Source of the DNA: Candidatus Uhrbacteria bacterium
GTDB taxonomy: Bacteria; Patescibacteriota; Patescibacteriia; UBA9934; GWF2-40-263
Direction of reading: 5' to 3'
NCBI GenBank assembly: GCA_026395055.1
Contig: JAPLZK010000002.1
Span: 192,154 to 256,153, forward strand
Length of the DNA: 64,000 nucleotides
Shown here: positions 6,167 through 55,936 of the stretch, piece after piece
Position numbering within the stretch: position 1 is the stretch's first letter
Layout: every line of letters begins with the position of its first letter
The notes under the pieces: generated by a model
What the model was told of the DNA's origin: nothing
Databases searched by the model: none
Seen by the model: only the letters and a program-made list of their open reading frames with translations
Program-made: the position numbers and the translations under genes

Positions 6167-7501
6167 ATGACTTCCACTCTCATCAAATCCATCGGCCAAT
6201 ATGTTGGTCAAGAAGTTCAACTCCAAGGTTGGGCATACAACTTTCGTTCAAGCGGAAAAATTTTCTTTTTGCAATTGCGTGACGGTTCGGCTCGTGTGCA
6301 GATTGTGTATTCGAAAGCGGATGTATCTGAGGAAACATGGAGCGCGCTCGAATCACTTCGTCTCGAGTCGTCTGTTCGTGTATTCGGTCGCGTAAAAGAA
6401 GACGCGCGCGCACCGTCCGGATTCGAACTCGATGGGTTGAGTCTCGAAATCGTCTCGCTCGCCATGGATGAATATCCGATCGGAAAAAAAGATCACGGTC
6501 CAGACTTCTTGCTCGACAATCGTCACTTGTGGTTGCGTTCTGACAAACAGTGGGCAATTCAGCGTGTGCGTGACACGATCATCACCGCAACATACAACTA
6601 CTTTCACGAAAATGATTTCGTAAAATTTGATACACCAATTCTTACACCAACCTCTTGTGAGGGAACAACCGAGCTCTTCGAAATGGATTACTTCGATATG
6701 GGCAAGGGTGAACCAGAGGCCGTGAATACGGGGACTGGTAAAGCATATCTTTCACAGTCAGGACAGTTGTATCTCGAAGCAGGAATTATGTCTCTTGGTC
6801 GCGCGTTCGACTTTGGTCCCGTATTTCGTGCGGAAAAATCAAAAACACGCCGACATCTCACAGAATTTTGGATGATGGATGCCGAAGCGGCGTTCGTTGA
6901 ACATCAGGGTAACATGCAGATTCAAGAAGGATTGATCTGCCGCATCGTTCACGATGTCCTCGCGAATTGCCAACATGAACTCAAGGTTCTCGAACGCGAC
7001 ACAAAGCCGCTCGAAGCGATTCAAGCACCGTTCGTTCACATGACTCACCAAGAAGCGATCGCGAAACTTCGCGAGCTTGGTTCGGACATCGGTGACATGG
7101 ATGATCTCGGTGCCGACGATGAAACGATTCTCACACAACAATTCGATCGTCCAATTTTTATCGAAAAATATCCCGCAGCGGTCAAAGCCTTTTACATGAA
7201 GCGTGATCCATCCAATCCAGAATTCGTTTTGAACAACGACATGCTCGCACCGGAAGGGTACGGCGAAATTATCGGCGGTTCACAACGTGAGGATGATTAC
7301 GAAACACTTCTTGAACGCATGCGAGAGCACAATCTCGCGATCGAACCATTTCAATGGTATCTCGATCTGCGAAAATACGGATCTGTACCACATTCAGGAT
7401 TCGGTTATGGCCTCGAGCGCATCACGGCTTGGATGTGCGGCCTCCAACATATTCGCGAGACAATTCCATTTCCACGTTTGATCAATCGACTGACGCCATA
7501 A
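6167..7501 (+). CDS. asnS: Asparaginyl-tRNA synthetase
   Basis: Class IIb aaRS with N-terminal OB anticodon-binding domain, motifs 1-3 (FRAEKSKTRRHLTEFWMMDAE ... GGSQRE ... GFGYGLERI) and AsnRS-typical KAFYMK. Confidence 0.85.
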   Translation: MTSTLIKSIGQYVGQEVQLQGWAYNFRSSGKIFFLQLRDGSARVQIVYSKADVSEETWSALESLRLESSVRVFGRVKEDARAPSGFELDGLSLEIVSLAMDEYPIGKKDHGPDFLLDNRHLWLRSDKQWAIQRVRDTIITATYNYFHENDFVKFDTPILTPTSCEGTTELFEMDYFDMGKGEPEAVNTGTGKAYLSQSGQLYLEAGIMSLGRAFDFGPVFRAEKSKTRRHLTEFWMMDAEAAFVEHQGNMQIQEGLICRIVHDVLANCQHELKVLERDTKPLEAIQAPFVHMTHQEAIAKLRELGSDIGDMDDLGADDETILTQQFDRPIFIEKYPAAVKAFYMKRDPSNPEFVLNNDMLAPEGYGEIIGGSQREDDYETLLERMREHNLAIEPFQWYLDLRKYGSVPHSGFGYGLERITAWMCGLQHIRETIPFPRLINRLTP

Positions 7502-8071: not shown

Positions 8072-9385
8072 ATGCAAAATCGAACTCTCGTCAGAGACTT
8101 AAATGACAAACTCGGTCAGACCGTCATTGTTGCGGGTTGGCTTCACCGTTTGCGCGATATGGCCAAATTCGGATTCGCCATCGTGCGCGATCGAAGCGGG
8201 TTGGTTCAGGTTGTTTTGACTGCGGAGCAATTGGAGCAACTGAAAGGTCTACAGGTTGAAACAGTGCTAAAAGTGACGGGTATTGTTGTGGAAAAACGCA
8301 CGAAAGATCCAAATGCACACGAGGTTGAAATTCAGGCAACAACGCTCGAAATTTTGTCTCCTGTTACAGACGTCACGCCCGTTGAAATCAATAATCATGA
8401 TCTTGATGCGCGACTTGAAACCCTTTTGGACAATCGTGTTGTAACTCTGCGTCATCCAAAACAGCGTGCGATTTTCCGCGTGCAAGCGGCATTGGTGCAC
8501 GGATACCGTGCCTATATGGAAAAGCAAGGGTTCACAGAAATCTTTTTTCCTGTGCTTGCGGGGGCGGCATCAGAAGGTGGATCAGAATTTTTTCGCGTGG
8601 ATTATTACGGACGTGATGCGGCGCTCACACAATCAGCGCAGTTGTATAAACAAATCACCATGGGGGTGTATGAAGGTGTGTACGGGGTTTCTTATTCGTT
8701 CCGCGCAGAAAAATTTTCCACTTCGCGCCATTTGACCGAGTTTAACCAATTGGAGTTTGAAGTCGGATTCATTGATAGTATGGAGGAGGTTATGGAGTAT
8801 GTAGAGGGTTCCACACGCGGAATGTTTGCGGCTATTCAGGAAGAGTGTAAAGAAGAGCTGGCATTGCTTAACGTTGTCCTCCCTCCACTTGGAGAAAAAT
8901 TTCCGCGCATTAAATTGATAGATGCACTGCACGTGTATAAGGCGGAAACGGGCATTGATGAAACACACGAGCCAGATTTGTCTCCCGCAGCGGAACGATG
9001 GTTATCAACGGTATGGGCTCCAAAGGTTCATGGGTCCGGATTCGTTTTTGTTACGCATTATCCAGAAACAAAGCGTCCGTTCTATACAAAGCTTGATCCA
9101 GAAGATCCAACATCAACACTCAGTTTTGACTTGATCGGATTTGGAAGTGAAATTGTTTCCGGAGGAATGCGCGTGAATCGTTATGATGAACAGCTTGCAC
9201 GTATTCAGTCAAAAGGTTTGCGTGTAGAAGATTTTGAGGATTATCTCATGATGCATAAATACGGCATCCCACCAGAAGGTGGATTCGGAATGGGATTGCA
9301 ACGTCTGACACAAAATATCTTGGGATTAGCAAATATCAAGGAGGCAACAATTTTTCCTCGCGATGTTCAACGTCTCAGACCATAA
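8072..9385 (+). CDS. aspS: Aspartyl-tRNA synthetase, archaeal/eukaryotic type (short, ~437 aa)
   Basis: Class IIb architecture without the bacterial GAD insertion domain: FRAEKFSTSRHLTEFNQLEFE, GSEIVSGGMR, GGFGMGLQRL. Length and motifs match type-2 AspRS. Confidence 0.8.
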   Translation: MQNRTLVRDLNDKLGQTVIVAGWLHRLRDMAKFGFAIVRDRSGLVQVVLTAEQLEQLKGLQVETVLKVTGIVVEKRTKDPNAHEVEIQATTLEILSPVTDVTPVEINNHDLDARLETLLDNRVVTLRHPKQRAIFRVQAALVHGYRAYMEKQGFTEIFFPVLAGAASEGGSEFFRVDYYGRDAALTQSAQLYKQITMGVYEGVYGVSYSFRAEKFSTSRHLTEFNQLEFEVGFIDSMEEVMEYVEGSTRGMFAAIQEECKEELALLNVVLPPLGEKFPRIKLIDALHVYKAETGIDETHEPDLSPAAERWLSTVWAPKVHGSGFVFVTHYPETKRPFYTKLDPEDPTSTLSFDLIGFGSEIVSGGMRVNRYDEQLARIQSKGLRVEDFEDYLMMHKYGIPPEGGFGMGLQRLTQNILGLANIKEATIFPRDVQRLRP

Positions 9386-9394
9386 ACAGATAAA

Positions 9395-9421
9395 AACCTG
9401 GGGAAAACCCAGGTTTTTTGT
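9395..9421 (+). terminator. Rho-independent terminator after aspS
   Basis: cctggg-gaaaa-cccagg followed by ttttttg. Confidence 0.75.
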
Positions 9422-9504
9422 TTTGCGTGTTCGAGGTGGTTCAGGTAAAATACGCACATAATTCGCGGGGGAGATCCTTCCTTCGTCAGGATGACGCAAA
9501 AAGC

Positions 9505-10197
9505 ATGTTCGAGATAGAATCAGAACAATTCACGGGTCCGCTGGAACTTCTTCTCGAGCTTATCGAAGCGGAATCTTTGTCGATCTCGGAAGTCTCACTT
9601 GCACATGTGACCGAGTCGTATCTTGCGCACATTGAAAAGAACGAACCCCCTGCAGACGAGCTCGCAGATTTTTTGATTGTCGCGACTCGACTTCTTCTTC
9701 TAAAATCCAGACTCCTCCTGCCAGACCCGGTTCTCGAGGAAGAAGATACCTCCGACCTTGCGGCACAGCTCAAAATGTACAAACAGTTCGTGGATCTTTC
9801 CGCACACCTCGAAAAACAATTCAACGCAAAGATCGAATTATTCCCGCGCGAGAAAGCAGATGTCATCAAGATTCTCGAACTCGTGATTCCAGACGGTGTC
9901 TCAACAACTTCGCTTCACGAATCATTCGCCAAGCTCCTCAAGAACTTGGAACCATTTTTCAATCTGAAACAAGTTGCCCTTGAGCGTGTCGTCTCCGTCA
10001 AAGAGCGGTTCGATGAAATTCGCAATGCGATTATGGAACGAGCCCGATTCACATTCAGAGATATTGTGGGAACAGGGAAGTCGAGAGTTGATACCGTTAT
10101 TAGCTTCCTCGCCCTTCTTGAACTCGTAAAGCAGCGCGTCGTTCATGTTGTCCAAGGTGAGTCATTTGAGGATATTGAGATTAAACGCATTGACTAA
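9505..10197 (+). CDS. scpA: Segregation and condensation protein A
   Basis: MFEIESEQFTGPLELLLELIE... is typical of ScpA; followed directly by scpB. Start trimmed to the ATG at 9505. Confidence 0.8.
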   Translation: MFEIESEQFTGPLELLLELIEAESLSISEVSLAHVTESYLAHIEKNEPPADELADFLIVATRLLLLKSRLLLPDPVLEEEDTSDLAAQLKMYKQFVDLSAHLEKQFNAKIELFPREKADVIKILELVIPDGVSTTSLHESFAKLLKNLEPFFNLKQVALERVVSVKERFDEIRNAIMERARFTFRDIVGTGKSRVDTVISFLALLELVKQRVVHVVQGESFEDIEIKRID

Positions 10198-10200
10198 TCT

Positions 10201-10752
10201 ATGCTCACAACAAATATTGAATCCATCCTCTTTGCTGCCGCGAAACCCATTTCTCTTGATCAGCTCAAGAAATATTTTGATGTCTCAAGTGAAGTGATTG
10301 TGGAAGCGGTTGAAGATATTCGTACACGTTATAATCGCGAGACATCCGGTATTCATCTTCTTGAACAAGAAGGGAAGGTTCAGTTTGTAACGAACCCAGA
10401 TGCATCAGAGGATGTCGCGAGCTTTTTGAAAAAAGATGCAACAAGTCCTCTCACCAAACCATCACTTGAGACGCTTACGGTTATTGCGTATCGTGGGCCA
10501 GTGACTCGACCCGAGCTCGAACAAATTCGTGGTGTGAACTGTGGAGTGATCCTTCGAAACTTGATGATTCGAGGATTCATCGAGGAGACGCAGGATCGGA
10601 CGCGGCTGCAACCGGTCTATTCCGTTTCGATGGACTTTATGCGCAAGCTTGGTCTCACGCATCTCGAAGAGTTACCCGAGTACGAATCATTTCATACAAA
10701 TGAATCTATTGACGAATTGCTTAAGACAACCCCAGAAGAACCGGTTGTATGA
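10201..10752 (+). CDS. scpB: Segregation and condensation protein B
   Basis: Tandem winged-helix ScpB signature (ESILFAAAKPISLDQL ... LETLTVIAYRGPVTRPELEQIRGV). Confidence 0.85.
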   Translation: MLTTNIESILFAAAKPISLDQLKKYFDVSSEVIVEAVEDIRTRYNRETSGIHLLEQEGKVQFVTNPDASEDVASFLKKDATSPLTKPSLETLTVIAYRGPVTRPELEQIRGVNCGVILRNLMIRGFIEETQDRTRLQPVYSVSMDFMRKLGLTHLEELPEYESFHTNESIDELLKTTPEEPVV

Positions 10753-15073: not shown

Positions 15074-15111
15074 TAGGTGAATGTGTGCATTTTGTCAATA
15101 GATTCCCGCAA

Positions 15112-15146
15112 ACAAAAAACCACCACGTGACGTGATGGATTTTTTG
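15112..15146. terminator. Bidirectional terminator, same hairpin family
   Basis: aaacaaaaaa-ccaccacg-tga-cgtgatgg-attttttgg. Better paired on the minus-strand RNA and follows the minus-strand tRNA. Confidence 0.65.
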
Positions 15147-15221
15147 GTAGCTGGAGAGGGGGTCGAACCCTCGACCTCGGGCTTATGAGTCCCGCGCTCT
15201 AACCAACTGAGCTACCCAGCC
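15145..15221 (-). tRNA. tRNA with CAT anticodon (elongator tRNA-Met or lysidine tRNA-Ile2)
   Basis: Reverse complement folds as a cloverleaf: acceptor GGCTGGG / TCCAGCT, D-arm GCTC-AGTTGGTTA-GAGC, anticodon loop CTCATAA, T-arm GAGGG-TTCGACC-CCCTC, 3' ACCA encoded. C11:G24 is elongator-like. Confidence 0.8.
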
Positions 15222-15348
15222 GTAAAAACTTTCTAAATTGGCGATCTTTCGGCTTGCGCTCCGCGTGCTTCATCGAAGGACGTCTATGTCCATCTCCGTC
15301 GCATGCTCGCGCTGCACCGAAATCTCATCCAATTTAGAAAGTTTTTAC
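15222..15348. repeat. Perfect 20-bp inverted repeat (GTAAAAACTTTCTAAATTGG / CCAATTTAGAAAGTTTTTAC) enclosing an 87-nt GC-rich spacer
   Basis: Arms at 15222-15241 and 15329-15348 are exact reverse complements. The element lies between the two minus-strand tRNAs and abuts the 5' end of the tRNA-CAT gene. Confidence 0.85.
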
Positions 15349-15374
15349 ACTCGCTTTGATTGGATGATTTTCCT

Positions 15375-15459
15375 TGGTGCCGACAGTGGGACTTGAACCC
15401 ACATGAGTTTCCCCACACGATTTTGAGTCGTGCGCGTATACCAGTTCCGCCATGTCGGC
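15375..15459 (-). tRNA. tRNA-Leu (CAA), type II with long variable arm
   Basis: Reverse complement GCCGACA...CACGA-CTCAAAA-TCGTG...GTGGG-TTCAAGT-CCCAC-TGTCGGC-ACCA; anticodon CAA; 85 nt. Confidence 0.85.
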
Positions 15460-15558
15460 CTGTTAAGGTAGCGATAAGATATCAAAATAACGAAAAACTG
15501 TCCAGCTCAGAATCTAAGGTATTGTTGACAGTTCGACCATGATCAGGCATACTTTCGC

Positions 15559-15635
15559 TGCGGGGTAGAGCAGCCTGGCAGCTCGTCGGGCTCATAACCC
15601 GAAGGTCATTGGTTCAAATCCAATCCCCGCAACCA
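15559..15635 (+). tRNA. Initiator tRNA-fMet (CAT)
   Basis: Near-identical to the canonical bacterial initiator. Three consecutive G:C pairs 29-31:39-41 (TCGGG-CTCATAA-CCCGA), A11:U24 in the D-stem, GGTTCAAATCC T-arm, weak U1:A72 end pair, CCA encoded. Confidence 0.85.
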
Positions 15636-15639
15636 AAAA

Positions 15640-15670
15640 TCCATCACCTTGTGTGGTGGTTTTTTGTTTC
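15640..15670 (+). terminator. Rho-independent terminator after tRNA-fMet, same hairpin family
   Basis: ccatcac-cttgt-gtggtgg followed by ttttttgtttc. Confidence 0.7.
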
Positions 15671-23657: not shown

Positions 23658-24812
23658 CTATTTTTGCCGCGTATAATAACGTCCGCCTTCGTGTTTGATA
23701 ATTCCTTTCATCTCAAGCAACGTGAGTGTGCTTCCAAGCGTGTCGATGGGAAGGAGTGTTGCGTGCGCAACTTCGTCTACGTGCACTGGGTCACGTGCGA
23801 GTTGTTCAAGAATGAGACGTTCCGTTTCAGAACGAGGTTGGTATGCAAACACAACCCCTCCCAACCTCCCCTTTGCAGGGGAGGAGTTTGTGCGTGCTTC
23901 TCGAGAAGCCCCTCCTGCAAAGGAGGGGTTGGGGGAGGTTTCGGGCCCAAGCATATCTTCCGTACACGTAACAGGAATCGCGCCCATCTTAATGAGATTA
24001 TTCGGCCCCTCACTCATTTCAGAGTCAATGTCGCCCGGTATTGCGTAAACGTCTCGGCCTCCTTCTAGTGCAGCGCGTGCGGTGATGAGTGAACCAGATT
24101 TTTGTGCGGCCTCGATGACAAGTGTTCCGTGCGCGAGTCCGGCAATGATTCTGTTTCTGAGAGGGAAGTGAAATGGCATAGGGAGAGTGCCCACCGGAAA
24201 TTCTGAAACAATGGCTCCACCATGCGCAAGAATTTGTGAAGCAATGTGCCTGTTGCCTGCAGGATAAATGGATGCAGTATCTACCCCTGAACCCAAAACG
24301 GCAATCGTAGTTCCGCCGTGCGTGAGCGTTGATTCATGCGCGAGCGCATCAATGCCGTACGCAAGTCCGCTCACAATGACGACACCAGATTCTGCAAGAG
24401 ATCCAACAATGCGTCCACCAACACGTAATCCGTATTTACTTGGGTTACGCGTTCCGACAACAGAGATGTGTTTACGAGATGGATCTGGAAGTGTTCCACG
24501 AAAAAACAGAATGGGTGGGGGATCGTAAATTTTTGAAAGGAGTGGGGGGTATTCTGGATCGCGACGCGTAACAGCGGATACATCCGCTTCAAGAAGTTTT
24601 TCTAGTTCTTGGTCTGGACTGATGTGTAAACGCGTTTGTAAAAAATGATTCGCAAGGTTTGCATCAAAGCCGGCTTCCAGTAAATCCATGACCGATGCCG
24701 AAAACGCGCGTTCCATGTTTGGAAACGCGCGGTATAATTTTCCGATACGTGCAGATCCAAAGTTTGGAACGCGCGCAAGAGCTAACCAATATTTTAAATC
24801 TGCTTGTGGCAT
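23658..24812 (-). CDS. dprA: DNA processing protein DprA/Smf (contains an in-frame ~30-aa insertion in the linker)
   Basis: Rossmann-like DprA core (GTRNPSKYG...VSGLAYGIDA...GSGVD) and C-terminal winged-helix-like tail. The linker TSPNPSFAGGASREARTNSSPAKGRLGG is encoded by the palindromic element at 23853-23940. Confidence 0.85.
   Translation of the reverse strand: MPQADLKYWLALARVPNFGSARIGKLYRAFPNMERAFSASVMDLLEAGFDANLANHFLQTRLHISPDQELEKLLEADVSAVTRRDPEYPPLLSKIYDPPPILFFRGTLPDPSRKHISVVGTRNPSKYGLRVGGRIVGSLAESGVVIVSGLAYGIDALAHESTLTHGGTTIAVLGSGVDTASIYPAGNRHIASQILAHGGAIVSEFPVGTLPMPFHFPLRNRIIAGLAHGTLVIEAAQKSGSLITARAALEGGRDVYAIPGDIDSEMSEGPNNLIKMGAIPVTCTEDMLGPETSPNPSFAGGASREARTNSSPAKGRLGGVVFAYQPRSETERLILEQLARDPVHVDEVAHATLLPIDTLGSTLTLLEMKGIIKHEGGRYYTRQK
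23853..23940. repeat. GC-rich palindromic element: two 32-nt inverted arms around a spacer carrying CTTCTCGAGAAG
   Basis: Arm consensus CCCCTCC-TGCAAAGG-AGGGG-TTGG-GGGAGG-TT. Each arm can form its own CCCC/GGGG hairpin. Lies in-frame inside dprA. Confidence 0.8.
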
Positions 24813-35622: not shown

Positions 35623-38600
35623 ATGAACCTGTATAGATTGTTCAAATCGATTTCCATTCTAGCCGTCCTTGTTTGTACGGGAATCTTTTTTGTCCACCCA
35701 GTCTTTGCAGTAAGTCCCACAGACTCCAATGCATTTTCTTCCTTTGCGGCTAGTGCGGGGTTTGCAGCGGGCCCTTCGGTGATTGTGATCATTGCACGAT
35801 TGATTCGTACATTCATTTCATTTCTGGGAGTGATTGCGGTTATCATCGTCCTTTACGGTGGGTTCATGTACATGACCGCCGGAGGAAATGACGAACGCGT
35901 CAAAAAAGCAAAAAAGATCATTCTGAATGGAATTATTGGTCTTGTTATTGTTCTTTTGTCATTTACGATCGCTCAGTTCATTGTGGGTAAGTTGGTGGCA
36001 GCAACGTCAGAGGCAGATATTTCTGCCTACTGTTTACAAAATCCAACAGATCCAACGTGTAAAAAATCACCTCCGTTTCCACCAGCGGTTCCACCGTTCA
36101 CATTGAATCCACCAACCTCTCTTATTCAATGCGCGGCAGGGATTCGTAATTTGAAATTGGTATTTGTTTTTTCAAAATCTGTAAAAGATGAAAAGGGGAT
36201 TACCGTAAAACAAAATGGCGCAGATGTTCCAGGGACGTTTTCGTTCTCCGGATCTAAAATCATGTTTGTTCCAGACGCAAAATGTGATGCCCCTAATGAC
36301 ACGCTTCATTGTTTTGCAAAAGACTCCACGTTTCATGTAGAGGTTGATTCCACAAAAGTAAAATCCTCAAATGACATCGCACTCACCTGTAAAGTTGTTG
36401 GGGGAGTAAATCCTTGTTCGTTTAATTTTACAACAGGCTCTTCTGTGGACGTGAAACCTCCACAAGAAGTTTCGTTCGTAGATCCAAAAGACGGTGCAAA
36501 AGCCATTTTGGGTTTAAGTAAAGCGCTTCAAGTAAAGACCGTTGATGATTCAGGAGTCGCAAGTGTTGATTTTTTTGCGATTGATGGAAGTGTTCCGATC
36601 AATATATCTTCTACTCCTGTAAATCCAACGGTCGCGAATGGACTCACAACCGCGAACTTCAATGGTGTTTGGGTTCCGGTAGGTCTTGAAACAAACGCAC
36701 CCTATTCCGTTTGGGCAACGGCCACAGACTGTGCAGGGAACACAAAAACTTCTAGCAAAGTTTCTCTCATGTTACGTGCACCAAACTGTGATAACAGTGC
36801 GCAAGATGCCGCGGCTCCGTATGGTGAAACAGGAAGCTGTAAGCCTGGAGAAGCGTGTGATTGTGGTGGATCATCTACAAGTCCATTTTACTGCGGACTT
36901 TGTAAACCTTCTGCATGTACAAACAGTGCGGAATGTTCATCTGGATATTGTATTGCGGGAAAATGTCAGGATGTCGCCGTGATCCAATCGGTTTCTCCAG
37001 ATAACGGTGCAGTAAACAACTTAGTAACCATTACAGGTTCTGGATTCGGAACAGTGCCGGGTACAATTGATTTTCTTGGAACAGAAAAAGAGAATACAAC
37101 AAAGTCGGCCAATGCATATCAGTGTGGAGCAAGCGTTTCGTGGTCACCAAAAGAAATTGTTGTACAGATTCCAGCCGGATCCATCGATGGTCCGTTGAAA
37201 GTAAATATTCCTGCAGTTGGAGCAGATCCCGCACAGTCTGACAGAACAGATGATGCTGTAGGTCCTGCCATGTCTTTGTTTGATGTAAACGCGATTAAGC
37301 GTCCTGGTTTGTGTTCTGTTGCTCCTGTAGCCGCAGAAGTAAATACTCCTATTACCCTTACGGGATTATCGTTTGGATCCACACAAGGTTCTTCTTCTAT
37401 TTATCTTTCGAGTTTTGAAGCAAAAGCAACCAATTGGACTGGAACAGTTCTTGGTGCAACGGTTCCTGGAGTAGAAAGTGGTAAGTATGATGCACAAGTT
37501 TTTACCGGTGATTATTTCTGTTTGAATGCAAGTGGGGTAAAGGTAAACCCAGCTGTCACCTGTTTTTCTAATGATGATTGTACAAAAGTTGATCCTGCAT
37601 ACACGTGTGGAACGTCTTGGTGTTCAGAATCACTAAAGTTTTGTCAGAATAATAGTGCGTGTGGTGTAGGAGAAGGGAAATGTGTGGATGTGCGCGTTGG
37701 ATCAAACACAAAATCTTTCGTTGCCACCAATACACCTTCTGCCTCTAAGCCGGTTATTAAATCCATCGATCCTTCCAGAAAATTGTGTTATTGGTCTGCG
37801 GATCAACTTAAACCTTTGCAAACAAAGCAGGGGCTTTCAGACACAAACTTTAATAGTTTTGTAGATTCATTGAATGGAACAACGATGGGTATTGGATCCT
37901 TGTGTTCTGCAGATACAGATTGTTCAAAAAAGATTTCAGGCGATACGTACAACGGTGTCTGTAAAGAGTATCCAAACACAGGTGGTCCCGGTCAATACAT
38001 TACGATTTACGGGTTAGGGTTTGGAACAGCGAAAGGAACGGTAAAGTTTACAGATGCAAACGAGTATTACGCTCTCGGAGACGTTTCATTTCCAGATGCT
38101 TGTGGAAAAGATTATTGGCATGATGACCACATCATTGTAAAGGTTCCAAAAAGTTACAGCAGTCAAGCGGGGGATCTCACAAATACAAATTACAACGTAA
38201 CTGTATCGACCCAAGGAAATGTTGCTTCTGATCCGGTCGCGTTTCACGTTTATCCGCAGGTTGTTCCGGGACCAAGTATTTGTTCTATTGTTCCAAGTTC
38301 GGGGCCTATTGGAACATCTGTTTCACTCATTGGAGAAAATTTTGGGTTACCTGTAACAAACACGGGGTACAATCTTCAGGCTGTTTTTACAGATAATCAG
38401 CAATCAAAACCTGGAAGTTGGGCAAATACACTTGTTTCAAATATTTTAGTTCCGGCTACGGCAAAGTCTGGTCCGGTTCATCTTGAATTTGGTTCCAACT
38501 CTCTTAATTTTACGGTGGGAAACTGTAAAACAGATTCAAAAATTGTTTGTTCAGCTGGACAAACCTGTTGCGCAAACGGAACGTGCTCGCTGTCGTGTGA

Positions 38601-41600
38601 TGACACGCCAAAAATTTCACACTTTGCTTACAAAGTTTCCACAAGTCCTTTTCCGGTCGCGCCAACGGTGGTGGTGAACTGTTCTGATCCAAAATTTGCA
38701 AAACCTTCTCCATCTCCTTCTCCGCTTTGGAGTAAGCAAGACAATATTTGTGTTACGTCTGCTGTTACGGCTTCCTTTAGTGTTGCCATGGATCCAAATA
38801 CACTCACTGCAACAAACATCAAAATCCAGAAATGTACTTCAGAAGCAAATGGGGTCTGTGCCAATTCGGGATGGCAAGATGTTGTGGGAGCATTTCAGGT
38901 CCCAAGTGCGGTTGCATTTCAATGGGCACCAACACCTCCGGCTGTGCTTGATGCGAATACGTTATATCAGGTCACCATCAAGGGTGCATCCGCTCCAGGT
39001 GGTGGCGTAAAATCAAAGGGAAGTGGATTAACCCTGGGTGTATCCATGGCCCAAGATTTTTCTTGGCAATTCCGTACATCTGCTTCAAATAAAGATTGTG
39101 GCATCGGAAGTGTGGCTGTTTCACCAGCAAATTATCTTGCGACCAATGCGAGTGAAACCATTGGGTATTTATCTCAACTCCTTTCGAATCAAGATAGCTG
39201 TATTGTCTTGTCGTGTAATCCGTACAAGGTTCGTTGGAATTCTGATACATGGAATGCAACATTTGCGCCAAGTCATACACTCACCGTTCCAGATGCTGCG
39301 GCAGATCCAGCACTCGGCTCTTGTTCTGCCTCTGTTTTTCCAGACGCAAACACCATTCCAGGATTCCCAGCACATATTTCTTCTGTCGTTATCAATGATG
39401 GGAAAAACCCGCATGCAACCGGTACAGGAAATTTGAACATTGCTCTCACAAATCCAAAGGTAAGTGATTATTTTCCAAATTGTTCTTCTGCCTGTGGAAA
39501 TGCCATGCCGTGGGTTACGTTTAACGTTGCCATGAATCCTTGGTATTTCAGCAATGCAGGAGCGATTCGTATTTTCAAATGCCAAAATAGTTTATGTGAT
39601 CAAAGTCAGGAAACGTTTCAAAATATTATTTCAGGAATCACGTACGATGCCGCAACTTATAAAGCGAAAATTGGATTAAACACATCACTCACACAAAATA
39701 CGTGGTACCGCATTGTCGTTTCTGGAACAATCAAATCTGGAACGCAGGCACCTCTTTCCAATTCCGGATCCAATTTTGGTACGTCAGAAAATAAATTCTT
39801 CTCCGGAGATTTTTCTTGGAGATTTAAAACAAAAGATTCCGCCATCTCTTGTGTGGTAGACCGTGTTGGGGTTTCTCCAAAAACAGCAACGCTTAACTAT
39901 GTTGGACAACGACAAGAATACAGCGCCACAGCTTTTGGGGCGCCAGATGATTGTTCTGTGACAGGCCAAGCTCTTCAATCAACAGGATGGGGTACATGGG
40001 GAGCAACAGATACTCCAAACAAAATCGGAGCCGCTTCTTATGTTTTGGGGGTGGATCATAAATTGAATGAAATTACAACGTTCATGTTGAATGAAGGTTC
40101 GCTCGCGCTTGCTTCTACGCTTCCAAAAACATGTGCAGCAAATTGTTTGTTTACCGGAAATCCAATCAACGTTGGACAAGCGGTCTGTGGAAACTCGTCT
40201 ATAGAAAACGGTGAATCCTGTGATGATGGCAACACAACAGACGGAGATGGCTGCTCGAGCATCTGTCTTAAAGAAGGAACGGTTGCGCCAACATGTGGAA
40301 ACGGTGCGATGAATACAGGAGAACAGTGTGATGACGGAAATACAATAGACGGCGATGGTTGTTCTTCAAAATGTTTATTTGAAGGAGCAACATCTATCAA
40401 ATCTGTTTGTGGAGATGGTGTTTGGGATCACACGGATAAGAATGGCGGAGAAGCATGTGATGATGGAAATACGAAAAATGGCGACGGTTGTAATTCAAAT
40501 TGTTTGCTTGAAGGTGGGGTCGCTGCCTACTCAAGCGCACGTTGTGGCGATGGTTCCGTTGGTGTTGGAGAAACGTGTGATGACGGAAACACTGTGGACG
40601 GTGATGGTTGTTCCTCTATTTGTCTGAATGAAGGAACCGTAAAGGGAACAGATGCCACAAAAGCTCAGTGTGGAAATGGTGTTACAAACGTTGGAGAAGA
40701 TTCCGGATGTGATCTTGGCGTTGGATCTGTTGCTCCAGGCTGTTCCACAAAATGTTTGAAACTGGGTTCAAGTCCAAGTTATCCTTCGCCATCTATCTGT
40801 GGAAACGGAGGGGCTTTGGAAACAGGGGAACAATGTGAAGCTGCGGCAGGTGCATCTTATGTAGCGGGTCCTTACGGAGTTGCAGAAGTTTCTCCTGGTG
40901 CTTCAGTTGAGGTGGAAAAGGATATCACAAAAGCAACATTCGGTTATGCGATTTCAAATGTTTCTGCAACAGTAGGTGGAAAAACAGGAGTGGGTGAATT
41001 TAAGTTGCTTTGTTCTTGTGAGGCAGACAACCAGTGCGGAACAAAATCTGGAGATCCAACAAAGACGCTTGGTTGCGGTGCTTCAAAGTGCTGTTATGAA
41101 CGTCCGGCTATTACCGCATCCGCACCGGGGGATAATGCAACAGGCGTTTGTCGTAATACCGCGATCTCGTTTACGTTTGATCAAGAAATGGATGCGAATA
41201 GTTTTGGGTCCGTTGATTTGGATGGAGATGGAAAAATCTCTACCGCAGAGACAGATCCAAATTTGCAGCTCGAGTTGATTACCATGAAATCCGCATTGGG
41301 AGTTGATGAAAATGTAACAGCGGCAAATTGTCCGTATTATGCTCAACCGGTCGGATTCTTACATGCAAAGAATTTGCTTGTATCTGCTTGGAATTGGATT
41401 AAGGGCTTGTTTGGTCAACCCGCGATGGCAAACGCCACAACACAATGTTACGTTCCAACAACGTATGAACAAGATCCAGCAACGCACCAAGTGTATCTCA
41501 GATATACAGAGCGTTTGTTGCCACTCGCGAAATATAAATTAACCGTGAAAACAAAAAACGGAAATGCAAAAGGAATCTTGAGTAAAAATCAGGTCAGTAT

Positions 41601-44600
41601 TTGTCTCGGAGACAATGGAACGGCTTGTCAGTCTGTTTCACAAACAAATACGTTTACGACCGGATCGGATATTTGTTTGCTGGATGTTGCGCAGACAACA
41701 GATGAGGGAATCACACCAGCACCACCTTCATATCTTTCAACAAGTCCTGGGTATTATTCAAAAACAAACGAAACGCACAATTTTAGTGTGAAGCCTCTTT
41801 CGTATCGAAAAAATACAGGTTTGTTGGAAGAAATTACATCCATTCCGAATGTGTATTCCTGGACATGGAGTTGGGGGGCTCCTGTGAAAGATACGGGAAC
41901 AAATGTTGATATTTTGGGAACGATTGCAGTAAGCACAACAAGCAACTCGCAATATAAAGCGCTTGGAAAAAATGGTTCTGGCGATGTTATTGCAACAGCA
42001 ACCATTACATCAGATGCGGTAAGCAAGGTTTCTACAACCGGATCCGGAGTTTCCGGTCATGTCTCAGAAGTTGCCTTCTTGTGTGAAAACCCATGGCCAG
42101 ATTTGGCACACGGTGTTCCGTTTGTGGAAACGGGGGCTAACACAAACTTCTCTCTCTTTTATTGTCGCGACATTGGAAAACCCGGAGAAGGAAAAATGCT
42201 TCCTGTACTTGCGCTTCCTCCAACAGACGCAACACCAGATCAAAAGATTATTAACACAAACGTGTTGAAGGAGTTAGTGTTCCATGTTGAAGGAACGAAA
42301 GACTCTATTGGGGTGCGCGTGCTCTCGAATCCAAAATATTTGTCTCCATTGGCATGGTTTCAATCTCAAGGATTTACGGGAACGCCAAAAACAACAACAC
42401 TTGATGGGTACGAAGCTGTTCAGACAGGTACAACCATTTATGCGGCCGCGGCAAATAGAAATGGTTCAAATCTCTACTCAAACATTTACGTTGTTTCATT
42501 TAACTCAGATGCAGGAAAAGATGCACAAGATATTTTTGATCTCGTGCTCAAAAATTTCCACTTGAATGCGAATGACACAGGTGCTACGGGTGTTTCACAT
42601 GTTGGTTTGTGTATGAGTGGAAACGCCTATACGCCAATTGCAGGCCCATTCGTCGCGTGTTCATGGGACGGAGATTGTTTGAATCAATGTAAACCAGAAG
42701 GAAAATGTTCTGTAACAGGAACCGTCTGTGATCCTAAACTAGGAAATACAGAATGTGCCGCAGATCCAAATGCGTTCTGTGATGCGGATAAACAAAAATT
42801 GATTCGTGACACCAAGCGTTTGACGGATATGACAAGCATGGTCGCTACGTTTGAAAAATATGGATCTTCACACGGTCATTGTTCCGTTACAAAAAATCAA
42901 ACATGTTCCACGAATGCACAGTGTTCCGGAACAGAAACGTGTGTTCCAGGTTATCCAACGGTGCAATCCGGTACATTTATTCCATCCATGAGTAACAGTA
43001 TTTGGCCTTCATGGAACAGTACGCTCGGAAATGCGGTGGGTGGAGCACTTCCAACAGATCCGCTTAACCAATACTGGGCACAATGTAAAAACGTAGGAGC
43101 AGGTTATGACTCTGCAACGTGTTGGAACAGTACACAAGGAAAATTTGTGTGTCCGGATGGTTCGCATGTGTACGGATATCAAAACCAGGGCGGAGAAGAT
43201 TACACATTATCTACAGAACTTGAATACGGTGCAGTTGCTTGGGTGAATAAGATTGATCAATCCGCATCAGACCATGCAACCATTCAAGCGTCGTATGGCT
43301 TAAACAAATCGCCAGCTGGATTGTTAGATGGATTTACGATCGCTCCACAATATTGCAACGCAACCACGTTTGGAAGTTCAACCATTTGTGGAGATGGTGT
43401 GAAGGGGGTTGGAGAAGCGTGTGAAAAAGGAGAAGTTAAATCTATTGCGTGCGCGGCAGGCGCTGGGTTTATTAACGTGACATGTAAGAGTGATTGTTCG
43501 GATTTCCAAGATGAAGCTGCGGCAAAAGCTGCGGGAGCAACCTGTAAACCATTCGCTTGTGGAAATGGAGTAAAAGATCCAGGAGAAACGTGTGATGACG
43601 GTGCATTAAACGGTACGTACGGACACTGTGGGGCAAACTGTACCCTTGCAAACGCATTTTCTTGTGGTGACGGTTACCTTGCCGGAAACGAACAGTGTGA
43701 TTGTGGAACGCCAACAAACTTCTCAACGCTTGCCGGAGCAAGCTGGGCAAAATCGAATAATCACTGCGATACCTATAATGGTGGATATTCCGCGACCGGA
43801 AAAAACTGTACGGTTGACTGCAAGCTTCCAGGACCAATGTGTAGCGACGCGATTGTGAACGACTCTTCTGAAGTTTGCGATAAGAGTACAGAAACGTATG
43901 CGGGAGCATTGAATGCGGATGGAACAAAGTGTAACGCATCATCTGGATGTGCAGTTGCCGCGTGTACAAAATCTAAAATTTGTACAGCGGGAACAAATAT
44001 TGGATCGACCTGTACAACTGACCTAAATTGTCCGACAGATGCAGCGGATGTTTGCGCATCAGATACTTGTGTGGCAAAAAAATGTTCCGCAAGTGGGAAG
44101 GCATGCGGAACAAATGCAGACTGTGTGGGTAAATGTTCCGTTAGCGGAAAGCTTTGTGGAACGACAGCAGATTGTGCGGGGAAATGTTCTGCTGAGCTAT
44201 ACGATCTAACCAGAACGCGCACGTGTCAGAATTATGGCACTTCACCCGTCTCTCAAGCGTGCTCATGGATAACGAATGCAAATAGTGGATGGGGAGACTG
44301 TGCAGGTGGTCCACAACAATGTGGAAATGGGAAAAAGGAAGGAGCAGAAGAGTGTGATGATGGAAATAGTTCAGATAATGATTCTTGTACAAACGCTTGT
44401 AAGTTGAATGTTTGCGGTGACAACAAAGTAAACGTCGGAATCGAATCCTGTGATAGTGGTGGAGCAAACGGAACCGTTTGTAACGCAGCATACGGTGCAA
44501 GCTGTAACTTCTGTAATAAATTCTGTCAGTACAAAACACAATCTGGTCCGTATTGTGGAGATGGAGTGATAAATGGAAATGAGTATTGTGATGGAAATGA

Positions 44601-45633
44601 TATTCCACGTCAGTGCTTCAAAGCGGATTCGGCAAAGTGTGCGGGTGGAACAAATGCGGCAGGTAAGGCGAGCAACGGAAAAGTTTGTGATCAATCGAAT
44701 CCATGTGGAGGTGATGCAAAGTGTGGTGATCAATCAAACCCGCAAGTTGCGGGAACCTGTTCAAAACAAGATGAAGGGAAAGTTGGTGGTCAATTAGGAT
44801 TTGAATGTTCCATCAGTCACACCTATTGCCGACCAAAAGGAACGTGTTGGGACGGAACGAATCCGGATGTTGCGAACGTTTGTACATCGAGTGCAGATTG
44901 TCCAAACGGCGGATCATGCGTGAATGATTCTGGATGTTATGGTGGGTACGGTGATTGTGTTCCAGCTCCAAAAGCATTTACTGGTTGTGATGCGGGGTAT
45001 ACGTGCCGTTTGGTTGGATCTTGTAATGGCGGAGACTCAAACGGGGAAAATGGAAAATTATGTACGACAGGAGGGCTTGGTTGGGAGTATTATCCAGATA
45101 ATAATAAAAATTATTGCGATCACACGTACACAAATGGAGTTGATACTGGTTCTGGAACCTGTCAGGTTCCGGTCTGTGGACCAAATTGCGGAAGCACCTG
45201 TCCAACCGCCTTCCAAAAAGTTTCTCTGCAAGTCCAAGGAAATGTAGCTGAGTCACAACCATCAAGTAATATTAATTTATATAGTTTCCAAAACGCTGCC
45301 GGTCAATCGCCAGATAGAGCAAGTATTCTTTTGCCTGCATGTCGCGTTGGGTCTAGTATCACAGCCGATATTGCAACCGGAAGTGCGCTTCTGAATACGG
45401 GGAATAACGCACAAATAATCGCGGCAACAAAAATAGATGCCAATGGAAAATATGTAAATGCTCAAACACAGACAGATATATTTGGTATCGGAAACGGAAT
45501 TAAACTGCCACTCCCAACCAAGTTTATCTGTCATGATGTTCCATTCTCTCTTCCGTTCAATGTAACACTCAATCCTCCGGCAGCATCGTCCGTTTCAATG
45601 AAGAACTTCGAGTTTACCTATTGTCCGCTTTAA
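35623..45633 (+). CDS. Giant surface protein (3336 aa): pilin-like N-module, Big/Ig-like and IPT/TIG domains, Myxococcus-type Cys-rich repeats
   Basis: Uninterrupted 10 kb ORF starting 9 nt after the previous stop. N-module matches the upstream paralog. IPT/TIG-like segments (IQSVSPDNGAVNNLVTITGSGFG; PSICSIVPSSGPIGTSVSLIGENFG) and more than 12 repeats of CG(N/D)Gx4-6GExCDDGNxxDGDGCSxxC. Confidence 0.85.
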   Translation: MNLYRLFKSISILAVLVCTGIFFVHPVFAVSPTDSNAFSSFAASAGFAAGPSVIVIIARLIRTFISFLGVIAVIIVLYGGFMYMTAGGNDERVKKAKKIILNGIIGLVIVLLSFTIAQFIVGKLVAATSEADISAYCLQNPTDPTCKKSPPFPPAVPPFTLNPPTSLIQCAAGIRNLKLVFVFSKSVKDEKGITVKQNGADVPGTFSFSGSKIMFVPDAKCDAPNDTLHCFAKDSTFHVEVDSTKVKSSNDIALTCKVVGGVNPCSFNFTTGSSVDVKPPQEVSFVDPKDGAKAILGLSKALQVKTVDDSGVASVDFFAIDGSVPINISSTPVNPTVANGLTTANFNGVWVPVGLETNAPYSVWATATDCAGNTKTSSKVSLMLRAPNCDNSAQDAAAPYGETGSCKPGEACDCGGSSTSPFYCGLCKPSACTNSAECSSGYCIAGKCQDVAVIQSVSPDNGAVNNLVTITGSGFGTVPGTIDFLGTEKENTTKSANAYQCGASVSWSPKEIVVQIPAGSIDGPLKVNIPAVGADPAQSDRTDDAVGPAMSLFDVNAIKRPGLCSVAPVAAEVNTPITLTGLSFGSTQGSSSIYLSSFEAKATNWTGTVLGATVPGVESGKYDAQVFTGDYFCLNASGVKVNPAVTCFSNDDCTKVDPAYTCGTSWCSESLKFCQNNSACGVGEGKCVDVRVGSNTKSFVATNTPSASKPVIKSIDPSRKLCYWSADQLKPLQTKQGLSDTNFNSFVDSLNGTTMGIGSLCSADTDCSKKISGDTYNGVCKEYPNTGGPGQYITIYGLGFGTAKGTVKFTDANEYYALGDVSFPDACGKDYWHDDHIIVKVPKSYSSQAGDLTNTNYNVTVSTQGNVASDPVAFHVYPQVVPGPSICSIVPSSGPIGTSVSLIGENFGLPVTNTGYNLQAVFTDNQQSKPGSWANTLVSNILVPATAKSGPVHLEFGSNSLNFTVGNCKTDSKIVCSAGQTCCANGTCSLSCDDTPKISHFAYKVSTSPFPVAPTVVVNCSDPKFAKPSPSPSPLWSKQDNICVTSAVTASFSVAMDPNTLTATNIKIQKCTSEANGVCANSGWQDVVGAFQVPSAVAFQWAPTPPAVLDANTLYQVTIKGASAPGGGVKSKGSGLTLGVSMAQDFSWQFRTSASNKDCGIGSVAVSPANYLATNASETIGYLSQLLSNQDSCIVLSCNPYKVRWNSDTWNATFAPSHTLTVPDAAADPALGSCSASVFPDANTIPGFPAHISSVVINDGKNPHATGTGNLNIALTNPKVSDYFPNCSSACGNAMPWVTFNVAMNPWYFSNAGAIRIFKCQNSLCDQSQETFQNIISGITYDAATYKAKIGLNTSLTQNTWYRIVVSGTIKSGTQAPLSNSGSNFGTSENKFFSGDFSWRFKTKDSAISCVVDRVGVSPKTATLNYVGQRQEYSATAFGAPDDCSVTGQALQSTGWGTWGATDTPNKIGAASYVLGVDHKLNEITTFMLNEGSLALASTLPKTCAANCLFTGNPINVGQAVCGNSSIENGESCDDGNTTDGDGCSSICLKEGTVAPTCGNGAMNTGEQCDDGNTIDGDGCSSKCLFEGATSIKSVCGDGVWDHTDKNGGEACDDGNTKNGDGCNSNCLLEGGVAAYSSARCGDGSVGVGETCDDGNTVDGDGCSSICLNEGTVKGTDATKAQCGNGVTNVGEDSGCDLGVGSVAPGCSTKCLKLGSSPSYPSPSICGNGGALETGEQCEAAAGASYVAGPYGVAEVSPGASVEVEKDITKATFGYAISNVSATVGGKTGVGEFKLLCSCEADNQCGTKSGDPTKTLGCGASKCCYERPAITASAPGDNATGVCRNTAISFTFDQEMDANSFGSVDLDGDGKISTAETDPNLQLELITMKSALGVDENVTAANCPYYAQPVGFLHAKNLLVSAWNWIKGLFGQPAMANATTQCYVPTTYEQDPATHQVYLRYTERLLPLAKYKLTVKTKNGNAKGILSKNQVSICLGDNGTACQSVSQTNTFTTGSDICLLDVAQTTDEGITPAPPSYLSTSPGYYSKTNETHNFSVKPLSYRKNTGLLEEITSIPNVYSWTWSWGAPVKDTGTNVDILGTIAVSTTSNSQYKALGKNGSGDVIATATITSDAVSKVSTTGSGVSGHVSEVAFLCENPWPDLAHGVPFVETGANTNFSLFYCRDIGKPGEGKMLPVLALPPTDATPDQKIINTNVLKELVFHVEGTKDSIGVRVLSNPKYLSPLAWFQSQGFTGTPKTTTLDGYEAVQTGTTIYAAAANRNGSNLYSNIYVVSFNSDAGKDAQDIFDLVLKNFHLNANDTGATGVSHVGLCMSGNAYTPIAGPFVACSWDGDCLNQCKPEGKCSVTGTVCDPKLGNTECAADPNAFCDADKQKLIRDTKRLTDMTSMVATFEKYGSSHGHCSVTKNQTCSTNAQCSGTETCVPGYPTVQSGTFIPSMSNSIWPSWNSTLGNAVGGALPTDPLNQYWAQCKNVGAGYDSATCWNSTQGKFVCPDGSHVYGYQNQGGEDYTLSTELEYGAVAWVNKIDQSASDHATIQASYGLNKSPAGLLDGFTIAPQYCNATTFGSSTICGDGVKGVGEACEKGEVKSIACAAGAGFINVTCKSDCSDFQDEAAAKAAGATCKPFACGNGVKDPGETCDDGALNGTYGHCGANCTLANAFSCGDGYLAGNEQCDCGTPTNFSTLAGASWAKSNNHCDTYNGGYSATGKNCTVDCKLPGPMCSDAIVNDSSEVCDKSTETYAGALNADGTKCNASSGCAVAACTKSKICTAGTNIGSTCTTDLNCPTDAADVCASDTCVAKKCSASGKACGTNADCVGKCSVSGKLCGTTADCAGKCSAELYDLTRTRTCQNYGTSPVSQACSWITNANSGWGDCAGGPQQCGNGKKEGAEECDDGNSSDNDSCTNACKLNVCGDNKVNVGIESCDSGGANGTVCNAAYGASCNFCNKFCQYKTQSGPYCGDGVINGNEYCDGNDIPRQCFKADSAKCAGGTNAAGKASNGKVCDQSNPCGGDAKCGDQSNPQVAGTCSKQDEGKVGGQLGFECSISHTYCRPKGTCWDGTNPDVANVCTSSADCPNGGSCVNDSGCYGGYGDCVPAPKAFTGCDAGYTCRLVGSCNGGDSNGENGKLCTTGGLGWEYYPDNNKNYCDHTYTNGVDTGSGTCQVPVCGPNCGSTCPTAFQKVSLQVQGNVAESQPSSNINLYSFQNAAGQSPDRASILLPACRVGSSITADIATGSALLNTGNNAQIIAATKIDANGKYVNAQTQTDIFGIGNGIKLPLPTKFICHDVPFSLPFNVTLNPPAASSVSMKNFEFTYCPL
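40180..40860 (+). repeat. Tandem array of ~6 degenerate ~110-120-bp coding repeats (Cys-rich CGNG...CDDGN...DGCS modules)
   Basis: Repeated tgtgga(a/g)a(c/t)gg...tgtgatga(t/c)gg(a/c)aa...ga(c/t)gg(t/c)tg(t/c)tc units read in the sequence. Confidence 0.75.
43380..44620 (+). repeat. Second, more dispersed array of the same Cys-rich module (at least 6 copies)
   Basis: CGDGVKGVGEACEKGE, CGNGVKDPGETCDDG, CGDGYLAGNEQCDCG, CGNGKKEGAEECDDGNSSDNDSC, CGDNKVNVGIESCDSG, CGDGVINGNEYCDGND. Confidence 0.7.
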
Positions 45634-46428: not shown

Positions 46429-46476
46429 TTATTCTACACGCCTTGCCTTTCGGCAGGCAGGTAATCGCCATTCAAT

Positions 46477-47112: not shown

Positions 47113-47114
47113 GT

Positions 47115-54945: not shown

Positions 54946-54977
54946 AAAGAGGAAGCGTCATGCTTCCTCTTTTTTGT
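54946..54977 (+). terminator. Rho-independent terminator after pyk
   Basis: agaggaagc-gtcat-gcttcctct followed by tttttg. Confidence 0.75.
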
Positions 54978-54985
54978 TTCCAAGC

Positions 54986-55018
54986 TCTCCCCCTGCAAAG
55001 GGGGAGTTGGAGGGGGTT
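54986..55018 (+). repeat. Second copy of the GC-rich hairpin element found in dprA (CTCCCCC-TGCAAAGG-GGGAG-TTGG-AGGGGG-TT)
   Basis: Aligns position by position with the right arm of the dprA palindrome (23909-23940), with compensatory changes that preserve the CCCC/GGGG stem. It ends 3 nt before the ATG at 55022 and supplies the GGAGGGGG Shine-Dalgarno. Confidence 0.7.
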
Positions 55019-55021
55019 CCC

Positions 55022-55291
55022 ATGTATCGCATACATTCGCTCATTCTTCTTCTGCTCGCATCTTGCGCGGCAAACGTGATTCAGACACGTGATCGATCGG
55101 TCGTGTGTAAACGAGATGGGCGTATTGAGCTTAGCTCTGTGATTGACCCACAGGTCTACATCTTGGTTTTTACACGCGAGCATTATGAGTTGCGGCTCGT
55201 GGATTCGCACCGTGCGGTTGCAAAATATGACCAATGTTACATGGAAATTTTTCCACCACCTACGTTTGTGGAACACCCTGACACTCGATAA
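55022..55291 (+). CDS. Small putative lipoprotein
   Basis: MYRIHSLILLLLASCAAN has a lipobox-like LASC; 89 aa. Confidence 0.45.
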   Translation: MYRIHSLILLLLASCAANVIQTRDRSVVCKRDGRIELSSVIDPQVYILVFTREHYELRLVDSHRAVAKYDQCYMEIFPPPTFVEHPDTR

Positions 55292-55394
55292 CATCGAGTG
55301 TTTTTCATTGACAATCTTTCGAAAATCGACTAGGATCATCAATCCTCAGCGTTGGGGATACAGGCGCACAATTCCAACAATTGGAGGTGAATTC

Positions 55395-55916: not shown

Positions 55917-55936
55917 TGCGTGTAAGGGGGATGTAC

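Follow-up and report, generated by a model that had tools for sequence, protein, structure and literature searches.

Dispersed three-armed repeats of a Candidatus Uhrbacteria genome, probable intrastrand triplex motifs, in frame in dprA and upstream of a lipoprotein gene

A 64-kb stretch of the genome of a Candidatus Uhrbacteria bacterium, a member of the Candidate Phyla Radiation (CPR), was analyzed (hereafter the window); it contains exactly three copies of a 32-nt repeat unit, two of them inverted within dprA and one preceding a lipoprotein gene. Judged by their sequence, these units are each probably a class II purine-motif intrastrand triplex motif, of the repeat class that in E. coli bears the names BoxC, PIT, or TMECO. 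They have a three-arm architecture in which the arms covary three ways, they lie as in-frame insertions in genes, and their arms are preferentially conserved. The repeat class itself is already known; what is new here is the CPR host, the in-frame coding insertions (in dprA, pth, and the gene of a TSP3-repeat protein), the identity of 42 out of 42 arm positions in a comparison of related dprA genes, and the set of sequence variants. An earlier note on this DNA had proposed a small dispersed repeat able to land in coding sequence; copies in relatives and metagenomes, in addition to the three in the window, and the further in-frame insertions in pth and the TSP3-repeat protein agree with that proposal. 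The same note had described the dprA copies as one 88-bp palindromic element, where there are in fact two different units, one A-type and one B-type, in inverted orientation.

Architecture of the units and their proposed fold

Read in the G-rich orientation, a unit consists of a pyrimidine arm (S1), TGCAAA, a complementary purine arm (S2), TTG, a further purine arm (S3), and TT. Unit A (CCTCCCC-TGCAAA-GGGGAGG-TTG-GGAGGGG-TT) is at 23853..23884 on the minus strand, the sense strand of dprA and the predicted triplex-forming strand; its parts, 5' to 3' on that strand, are S1 (23884-23878), TGCAAA (23877-23872), S2 (23871-23865), TTG (23864-23862), S3 (23861-23855), and TT (23854-23853). Unit B (CCCCTCC-TGCAAA-GGAGGGG-TTG-GGGGAGG-TT) is at 23909..23940 on the plus strand, here the predicted triplex-forming strand and antisense to dprA, with S1 at 23909-23915, TGCAAA at 23916-23921, S2 at 23922-23928, TTG at 23929-23931, S3 at 23932-23938, and TT at 23939-23940. 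Between A and B lies a 24-nt spacer (23885..23908) that ends in a perfect 12-nt palindrome, CTTCTCGAGAAG (23897-23908). Unit C (CTCCCCC-TGCAAA-GGGGGAG-TTG-GAGGGGG-TT), a single intergenic copy at 54987..55018 on the plus strand, comprises S1 (54987-54993), TGCAAA (54994-54999), S2 (55000-55006), TTG (55007-55009), S3 (55010-55016), and TT (55017-55018).

In units A, B, and C alike, S2 is the reverse complement of S1, and S3 is the exact mirror image of S2. The single A/T position shifts in step across S1, S2, and S3, and the TGCAAA, TTG, and TT segments are invariant among the three window units. Compensatory changes preserving a hairpin had been recognized previously, correctly so for S1 and S2, but the defining feature, a third arm that mirrors S2 and covaries with the hairpin, had been missed. 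Because S3, as a mirror image placed after a hairpin turn, runs antiparallel to S2, the arms are arranged as in a purine-motif triple helix built from G·G-C and A·A-T triads. We propose that, when the G-rich strand is single stranded, S1 and S2 would pair over 8 bp in a Watson-Crick hairpin with GCAA as its loop, and that the TTG turn would fold S3 back antiparallel to S2. S3 would then lie in the major groove and form G·G-C and A·A-T reverse-Hoogsteen triads, and the first T after S3 would join the T-A pair that tops the stem in a T·A-T triad. In the cell, such a triplex may form for short periods when replication, repair, or transcription exposes single-stranded DNA.

The class II motif has been defined as a pyrimidine arm, a purine arm, and a reverse-Hoogsteen arm following each other 5' to 3' on one strand, with 6-15 triads (at most one mismatch if there are more than 7), loops of 1-6 nt, and the triads G·G-C, A·A-T, and T·A-T (Holder et al., 2015; PMC4666352). 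Units A, B, and C all follow this domain order, with a 4-nt loop 1 (GCAA), a 3-nt loop 2 (TTG), and 8 of 8 triads, counting in the T-A pair beside the loop and the T that directly follows S3. A scan of the window for three-stranded units returned exactly A, B, and C at 8/8 triads and nothing in 20 Markov shuffles of the window; likewise, a degenerate 25-nt pattern matched only at the three unit sites and in none of 100 shuffles. The Watson-Crick hairpin part of the units has a calculated energy of −9.2 kcal/mol as DNA (ViennaRNA, which models no triads).

The two dprA arms (23853-23884 and 23909-23940) are each 32 nt long and 24 nt apart, as the earlier note had it along with the palindrome in the spacer, although "near-perfect" overstates their complementarity, which is 81% (26/32). 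The six mismatches do not reflect decay: they coincide exactly with the positions at which variants A and B differ, and the dprA element is therefore better described as two autonomous units placed head to head than as one palindrome. A single 88-nt long hairpin was considered as a candidate structure; it folds well, but since its six mismatches are the variant-defining positions, two autonomous units were preferred.

The mirror third arm and three-way covariation

Change in step among the three arms extends to about 12 sequence variants from metagenomes and relatives. Public collections were scanned with the pattern TGCAAAGRRRRRGTTGGRRRRRGTT, in which the loops and end Gs are fixed, S1 is free, and A is allowed anywhere in five positions of each of S2 and S3. 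The scan returned 2 genome loci, one of them a chance match, and 20 metagenome loci; the A-rich matches look like chance, and all of the G-rich matches belong to the family. Every distinct G-rich S2/S3 type (6/6) is an exact mirror, the product of the chance probabilities being 1.6e-5, and the unconstrained S1 is complementary to S2 in nearly all G-rich matches, sometimes across a 27-32-nt insertion in loop 1. Copies with other loops (TTTTGTAAA, CTCTCAGA, TCG, TTA, CA), found without the loop pattern in metagenome and Uhrbacteria loci, also obey the mirror rule, and they add the mirror variants GGGGGGA/AGGGGGG, GGAGGAG/GAGGAGG, and GAGAGGG/GGGAGAG.

The commonest single deviation in S3 is an A to T change opposite an A-T pair, present in 4 of the 7 deviating types (L024/L028, two sites in L029, and L010). 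Such swaps fit the T·A-T triad that would be available in a purine motif on the G-rich strand, and do not fit a pyrimidine motif on the C-rich strand.

An independent set was assembled from viral-collection contigs picked only by the hairpins CCTCCCC..GGGGAGG and CCCCTCC..GGAGGGG, leaving S3 unconstrained. Third strands following the mirror rule with at least 7 triads occur at 55 of 471 non-palindromic hairpin sides, where they usually span the full arm (8-12 triads, TT opposite AA); sides fitting a direct-repeat rule alone number only 2 of the 471. This run analysis of full arms, mirror versus direct, replaced a 2x2 table of hairpin type against the downstream 7-mer, which was confounded by the register of the G-runs and by longer palindromic stems. 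The viral collection has many TMECO-like units, with more than 120 contigs from a pattern scan and 106 regular-expression matches in the contigs fetched; the TGCAAA-type unit had no match in the viral-contig scan.

These data bear on whether the purine arms might instead serve a G-quadruplex (G4), or an H-DNA formed from duplex S2-TTG-S3 under supercoiling. The G-runs of S2 and S3 could build a two-tetrad G4, and S2-TTG-S3 is a homopurine mirror repeat, as H-DNA requires, yet neither structure needs S1, which covaries with S2. A G4 would not predict the mirrored movement of the A or the A to T swaps, and G-run lengths are not conserved (the runs of unit C are 5, 1, 2, and 5); for H-DNA, mirror arms of 7-8 nt are short. 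We regard both structures as very improbable explanations of the units, and the intrastrand triplex as the better account of the joint behavior of all three arms.

Family members are found in contigs of 44% to 66% GC, including a Planctomycetales genome (L002). The contig L010 has two units (127-181 and 223-278) with a 31-32-nt GC-rich hairpin insertion in loop 1; all three arms are intact, indicating that loop 1 tolerates large insertions. One of these insertions contains a HIP1-like GCGATCGC, a sequence that suggests a cyanobacterial host. Four contigs of about 46% GC (L006, L008, L011, and L014; Ga0265342 / Ga0265316) belong to one uncultured organism and carry many D-type units (CTCCCTC/GAGGGAG/GAGGGAG), mostly arranged in inverted doublets in which the partner is E-like and the spacer 11 nt long; this points to a high copy number in that genome.

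Units in dprA, in other genes, and upstream of the lipoprotein gene

The dprA gene (23658..24812, minus strand) encodes 384 residues with PF02481 and the winged-helix domain PF17782, and its interdomain linker carries units A and B in frame, the element encoding ETSPNPSFAGGASREARTNSSPAKGRLGGVV. The open reading frame (ORF) is intact, as expected from the earlier description of an in-frame linker insert. In an AlphaFold2 model of DprA, the insert residues 291-322 have a predicted local distance difference test score (pLDDT) below 50 and are flanked by two confidently folded domains (mean of the whole model 84). The insert is presumably tolerated because it is in frame and adds a Pro/Ser/Gly-rich stretch to a linker that the model predicts to be disordered.

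The insert is restricted in lineage: typical Uhrbacteria and Parcubacteria DprA proteins are 358-362 residues long with no insert in the linker, and even a DprA 91% identical to that of the window (P0002) has no recognizable unit, as is the case for P0006, P0011, and P0013. Among relatives with units, P0003 (L023; 84% identity) has the same A+B pair as the window, and P0007 (L024; 78%) has an A-type unit together with an E-type unit (CCCTCTC/GAGAGGG/GGGTGAG). An E-type unit alone is found in P0004, P0008, and P0009 (79-81%), and at the same site, visibly decaying, in P0005 (L030; 79%). In P0014 (L029; 64%), an A-type unit faces the other way and, in a different frame, is translated as PPGLPFAGEE.

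Comparison of the window dprA with that of L023 reveals a marked difference between the arms and their surroundings. The six arms are identical at 42/42 positions, third codon positions included, compared with 33/46 (72%) in the loops and spacer, 76.9% in the rest of the gene, and 50% at third codon positions. The arms thus appear to be kept at the nucleic-acid level, or else to be homogenized by gene conversion, and selection on the protein would not explain the pattern. This comparison also bears on the idea that the symmetry of the DNA arose incidentally, from selection for a Pro/Ser/Gly linker of low complexity in DprA. That the insert does encode a disordered P/S/G/R-rich linker is in its favor, but full conservation of third codon positions in the arms, as against 50% elsewhere in the gene, is not what it predicts, nor are the different frames and orientations in which relatives read the unit, as in L029. 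Intergenic copies (unit C, the parA-parB spacer of L029, and many metagenome loci) bring it close to refutation, and we consider it extremely unlikely.

Two further coding insertions were identified by alignment to orthologues. In pth of L029 (peptidyl-tRNA hydrolase), a clean 48-nt insertion adds 16 residues in frame (TSTTTPLSPPCKGGER); six orthologues are without it, and its antisense strand reads TCCCCTCC tttacaa GGAGGGGA taa AGGGGTGG. Elsewhere in L029, a unit fills the parA-parB spacer. In the TSP3-repeat protein of L377, an E-type unit adds about 11 residues (PSPSKGEG), a peptide also found in some DprA linkers. At the site of this unit (L377 2997-3030), L378 (~2860-2885) and L379 carry a small unrelated hairpin, CCCATGAAAAGCATGGG, which could be a decayed older unit or a hairpin that pre-existed at the insertion site. 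Two other features of these neighborhoods were observed. L029 (GCA_964355525.1), which carries three triplex units, has a reverse-transcriptase gene (RVT_1, 319 aa; 9272-10231) between relA and parB, and L030 has a small gene pair including a HigB-like toxin between der and pth (6549-7036), absent at that place in the window.

Clean presence/absence insertions of this kind would also be expected of a mobile palindrome, either one resembling REPs (repetitive extragenic palindromic sequences) and their REPIN doublets or a MITE (miniature inverted-repeat transposable element), moved by a REP-associated tyrosine transposase (RAYT), an IS200-type transposase, or another transposase, with the third arm incidental. 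The dispersed occurrence, the inverted doublets with short spacers, and the hairpins that would form on single-stranded DNA, as those of REPs do, are all compatible with this proposal, which the earlier note had favored. It has not fared well. No GTAG or CGTC tag is present within 15 nt of the three units on either strand, and no terminal inverted repeats or target-site duplication are evident at the pth (L029) or TSP3-protein (L377) insertions when aligned to empty sites. No Y1 (RAYT) or other transposase was found among 30 window ORFs searched in Pfam (most of the other ORFs are housekeeping orthologues by annotation, and a few are unchecked). The doublet units are different variants, 81% complementary, and not a duplicated arm, and a mobile palindrome would leave unexplained both the strict mirror rule and the third arm's A to T swaps. 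We therefore think such an element improbable and retain the triplex-motif assignment.

Unit C lies in the interval where the earlier note had placed a further copy, at ~55 kb between the pyk terminator and a lipoprotein start. A terminator-like hairpin with a T-run (54946..54972, plus strand) follows pyk just upstream of the unit, and the small lipoprotein gene (55022..55291, plus strand), with a lipobox and beginning MYRIHSLILLLLASC, starts at the ATG at 55022. GGAGG at 55009-55013, formed by the turn and S3 of unit C and positioned 8 nt before this ATG, is the gene's only Shine-Dalgarno-like sequence. In L378, the orthologous pyk-lipoprotein spacer has no unit and carries plain GGAGGcaatcATG (GGAGG). 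It is plausible, from this arrangement, that transcribed unit C supplies the ribosome-binding site of the lipoprotein gene.

The position of unit C raises the question of whether the repeat acts in RNA, as a GNRA-capped hairpin with a purine tail that governs translation or mRNA stability, e.g. by masking the Shine-Dalgarno sequence or making it accessible. GCAA, the loop sequence, belongs to the GNRA tetraloops, unit C folds as RNA with a calculated −25.2 kcal/mol, and a Planctomycetales copy (L002/L009) also lies just upstream of an ATG. Several observations are at odds with such a role. Orientation relative to transcription is inconsistent, with the G-rich strand antisense in most coding copies (A-type units are sense in the window, L023, and L024, and antisense in L029; E-type units are antisense), which argues against a cis-acting mRNA element. 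The mirror-image S3 has no Watson-Crick partner; a third arm competing for S1 with S2 would be expected to repeat S2 directly and not to mirror it. Only tRNAs reach the Rfam gathering threshold in the window, and the units give only sub-threshold chance matches to microRNA and small-RNA models, with no family at either a gathering or an E-value cutoff. Purine-motif triplexes, moreover, do not form in RNA, and PIT elements are without promoter or terminator activity (Holder et al., 2015; PMC4666352). A primary function as a regulatory RNA structure is thus quite improbable in our estimation.

In the window (55143-56512) and in L377-L379, pyk is followed by tandem paralogous genes for small secreted proteins or lipoproteins, with a 62-nt direct repeat at 55800/56396 in the window. 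Of these paralogues, the first, which unit C precedes, occurs in L378 but not in L377 or L379.

Relation to known repeats and weight of the triplex assignment

The E. coli repeat was named BoxC, then PIT, and then TMECO, with the consensus CCCTCNCCC N3-6 GGGNGAGGG N3 GGGNGAGGG, and 3610 TMECO copies were counted in 262 proteobacterial genomes, G/C-rich motifs also being abundant in cyanobacteria (Holder et al., 2015; PMC4666352). In vitro, circular dichroism and nuclear magnetic resonance show TMECO oligonucleotides to adopt a stable DNA triplex, and TMECO is associated with local genome variability (Holder et al., 2015). The Uhrbacteria units share with BoxC, PIT (Hoyne and Maher, 2000), and TMECO the order of domains, the triad rules, and the occurrence as G/C-rich dispersed copies. 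In E. coli, inverted TMECO pairs always combine two different types (loop 2 TTA versus CCG), and the repeats are strictly intergenic (Holder et al., 2015). Inverted pairs of two types likewise occur here, as A+B in the window and L023 and as A+E in L024. In contrast, although unit C is intergenic, several copies lie in frame in genes (dprA, pth, and the TSP3-repeat protein), and the host belongs to the CPR and not to the Proteobacteria or Cyanobacteria. The window units also depart from the consensus in having a single A, 7-8 triads rather than 9, and TGCAAA and TTG loops, and none of the three matches the TMECO regular expression; the dprA unit of Uhrbacteria L025/L026, however, matches it exactly (CCCTCTCCCTTCGAGGGAGAGGGCTGGGGAGAGGG). 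Literature searches gave no report of the exact arm sequences and nothing relevant on palindromic in-frame repeats of CPR bacteria.

Partial likenesses to other systems are also apparent. REP, bacterial interspersed mosaic element (BIME), and REPIN sequences are short, GC-rich, dispersed hairpins, often in inverted pairs and presumably active as structures of single-stranded DNA, but REPs lack a mirror third arm, are extragenic by definition, and have the tag absent here. The Rickettsia palindromic elements are short palindromic repeats that lie in frame in conserved genes of a small-genome bacterium and are translated as extra surface or linker peptides; they differ from the units in their length (~100-150 bp) and their lineage, have no known sequence relationship to them, and are not known to have a pyrimidine/purine/mirror-purine design in three arms. 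H-DNA mirror repeats use an antiparallel purine third strand with Mg2+-dependent G·G-C and A·A-T triads. In the units, unlike H-DNA, all three strands come from one DNA strand, the pyrimidine partner is supplied in cis, and the arms are far shorter. Synthetic polypurine reverse-Hoogsteen hairpins rely on the same antiparallel purine third-strand chemistry as that proposed for the units.

A number of points weigh against a triplex that forms, and is maintained, in the cell. In vivo dimethyl sulphate (DMS) footprinting detected no TMECO triplex, and duplex signals alone came from the double-stranded form (Holder et al., 2015; PMC4666352). The stems of the window units are short, and with 7-8 triads, compared with 9 in TMECO, their fold may be less stable. 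As DNA, the dprA doublet also folds as one long imperfect hairpin (−25.5 kcal/mol, versus approximately −18 for two local hairpins). The covariation counts come from about 12 sequence types, which may not all be independent by descent, and three single S3 deviations break the triad rule (G to T in L013, A to C in L008, and G to C in L003/L018). Maintenance is not universal, the dprA unit being in decay in L030 and absent from L027 and similar genomes, and purifying selection need not be the cause of the 42/42 arm identity, which could stem from gene conversion among copies or from a recent replacement. Finally, neither the scan of window ORFs nor inspection of the pth and TSP3-protein insertions revealed a mobilizing enzyme, a target-site duplication, or an insertion mechanism.

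We consider that the repeat most likely persists or spreads as a selfish or neutral element. The triplex fold may be the target of selection, either for the repeat's own propagation and maintenance or for an effect on the host. A more far-reaching proposal combines selection on the fold itself, i.e. evolutionary evidence of a triplex in vivo, with active mobility of the repeats in CPR bacteria, where they would insert in frame into essential genes (dprA, pth) and could replace ribosome-binding sites, perhaps by means of a structure-specific enzyme; this we regard as possible but rather doubtful. Intrastrand triplex repeats have been known for 25 years, and their function and in vivo folding remain unproven. 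The present set provides comparative evidence unavailable from the near-identical E. coli copies: many diverged variants with coordinated changes across all three arms, substitutions of the third arm that obey triplex chemistry, and arms unchanged inside a coding region while the surrounding synonymous sites diverge. If selection on the fold is borne out, it would constitute evolutionary evidence that a DNA triplex exists in living cells and matters there, something that the earlier biochemistry of BoxC/TMECO could not demonstrate. The natural variants could be used as a designed mutant series for biophysical tests, making in vivo triplex folding more testable. The occurrence of triplex repeats in reduced CPR genomes, carried in frame in conserved enzymes as a source of linker and loop variation, is also relevant to annotators.

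The window contains other repetitive features. A 3336-residue ORF (35623-45633, plus strand) has many Cys-rich repeats of about 36 residues (CGNG..E.CDDGN..DGDGCS..C), and its orthologues have matches to T4SS_pilin, Big_5, and DUF4215; small proteins that have TSP3 (DTDGDG) repeats come after it (45643-48113). At 15110-15669, three tRNA genes (15148-15221, 15378-15459, and 15559-15632) are bracketed by a 35-nt inverted repeat (15110-15144 / 15635-15669), and further exact 20-nt inverted repeats lie near this cluster.

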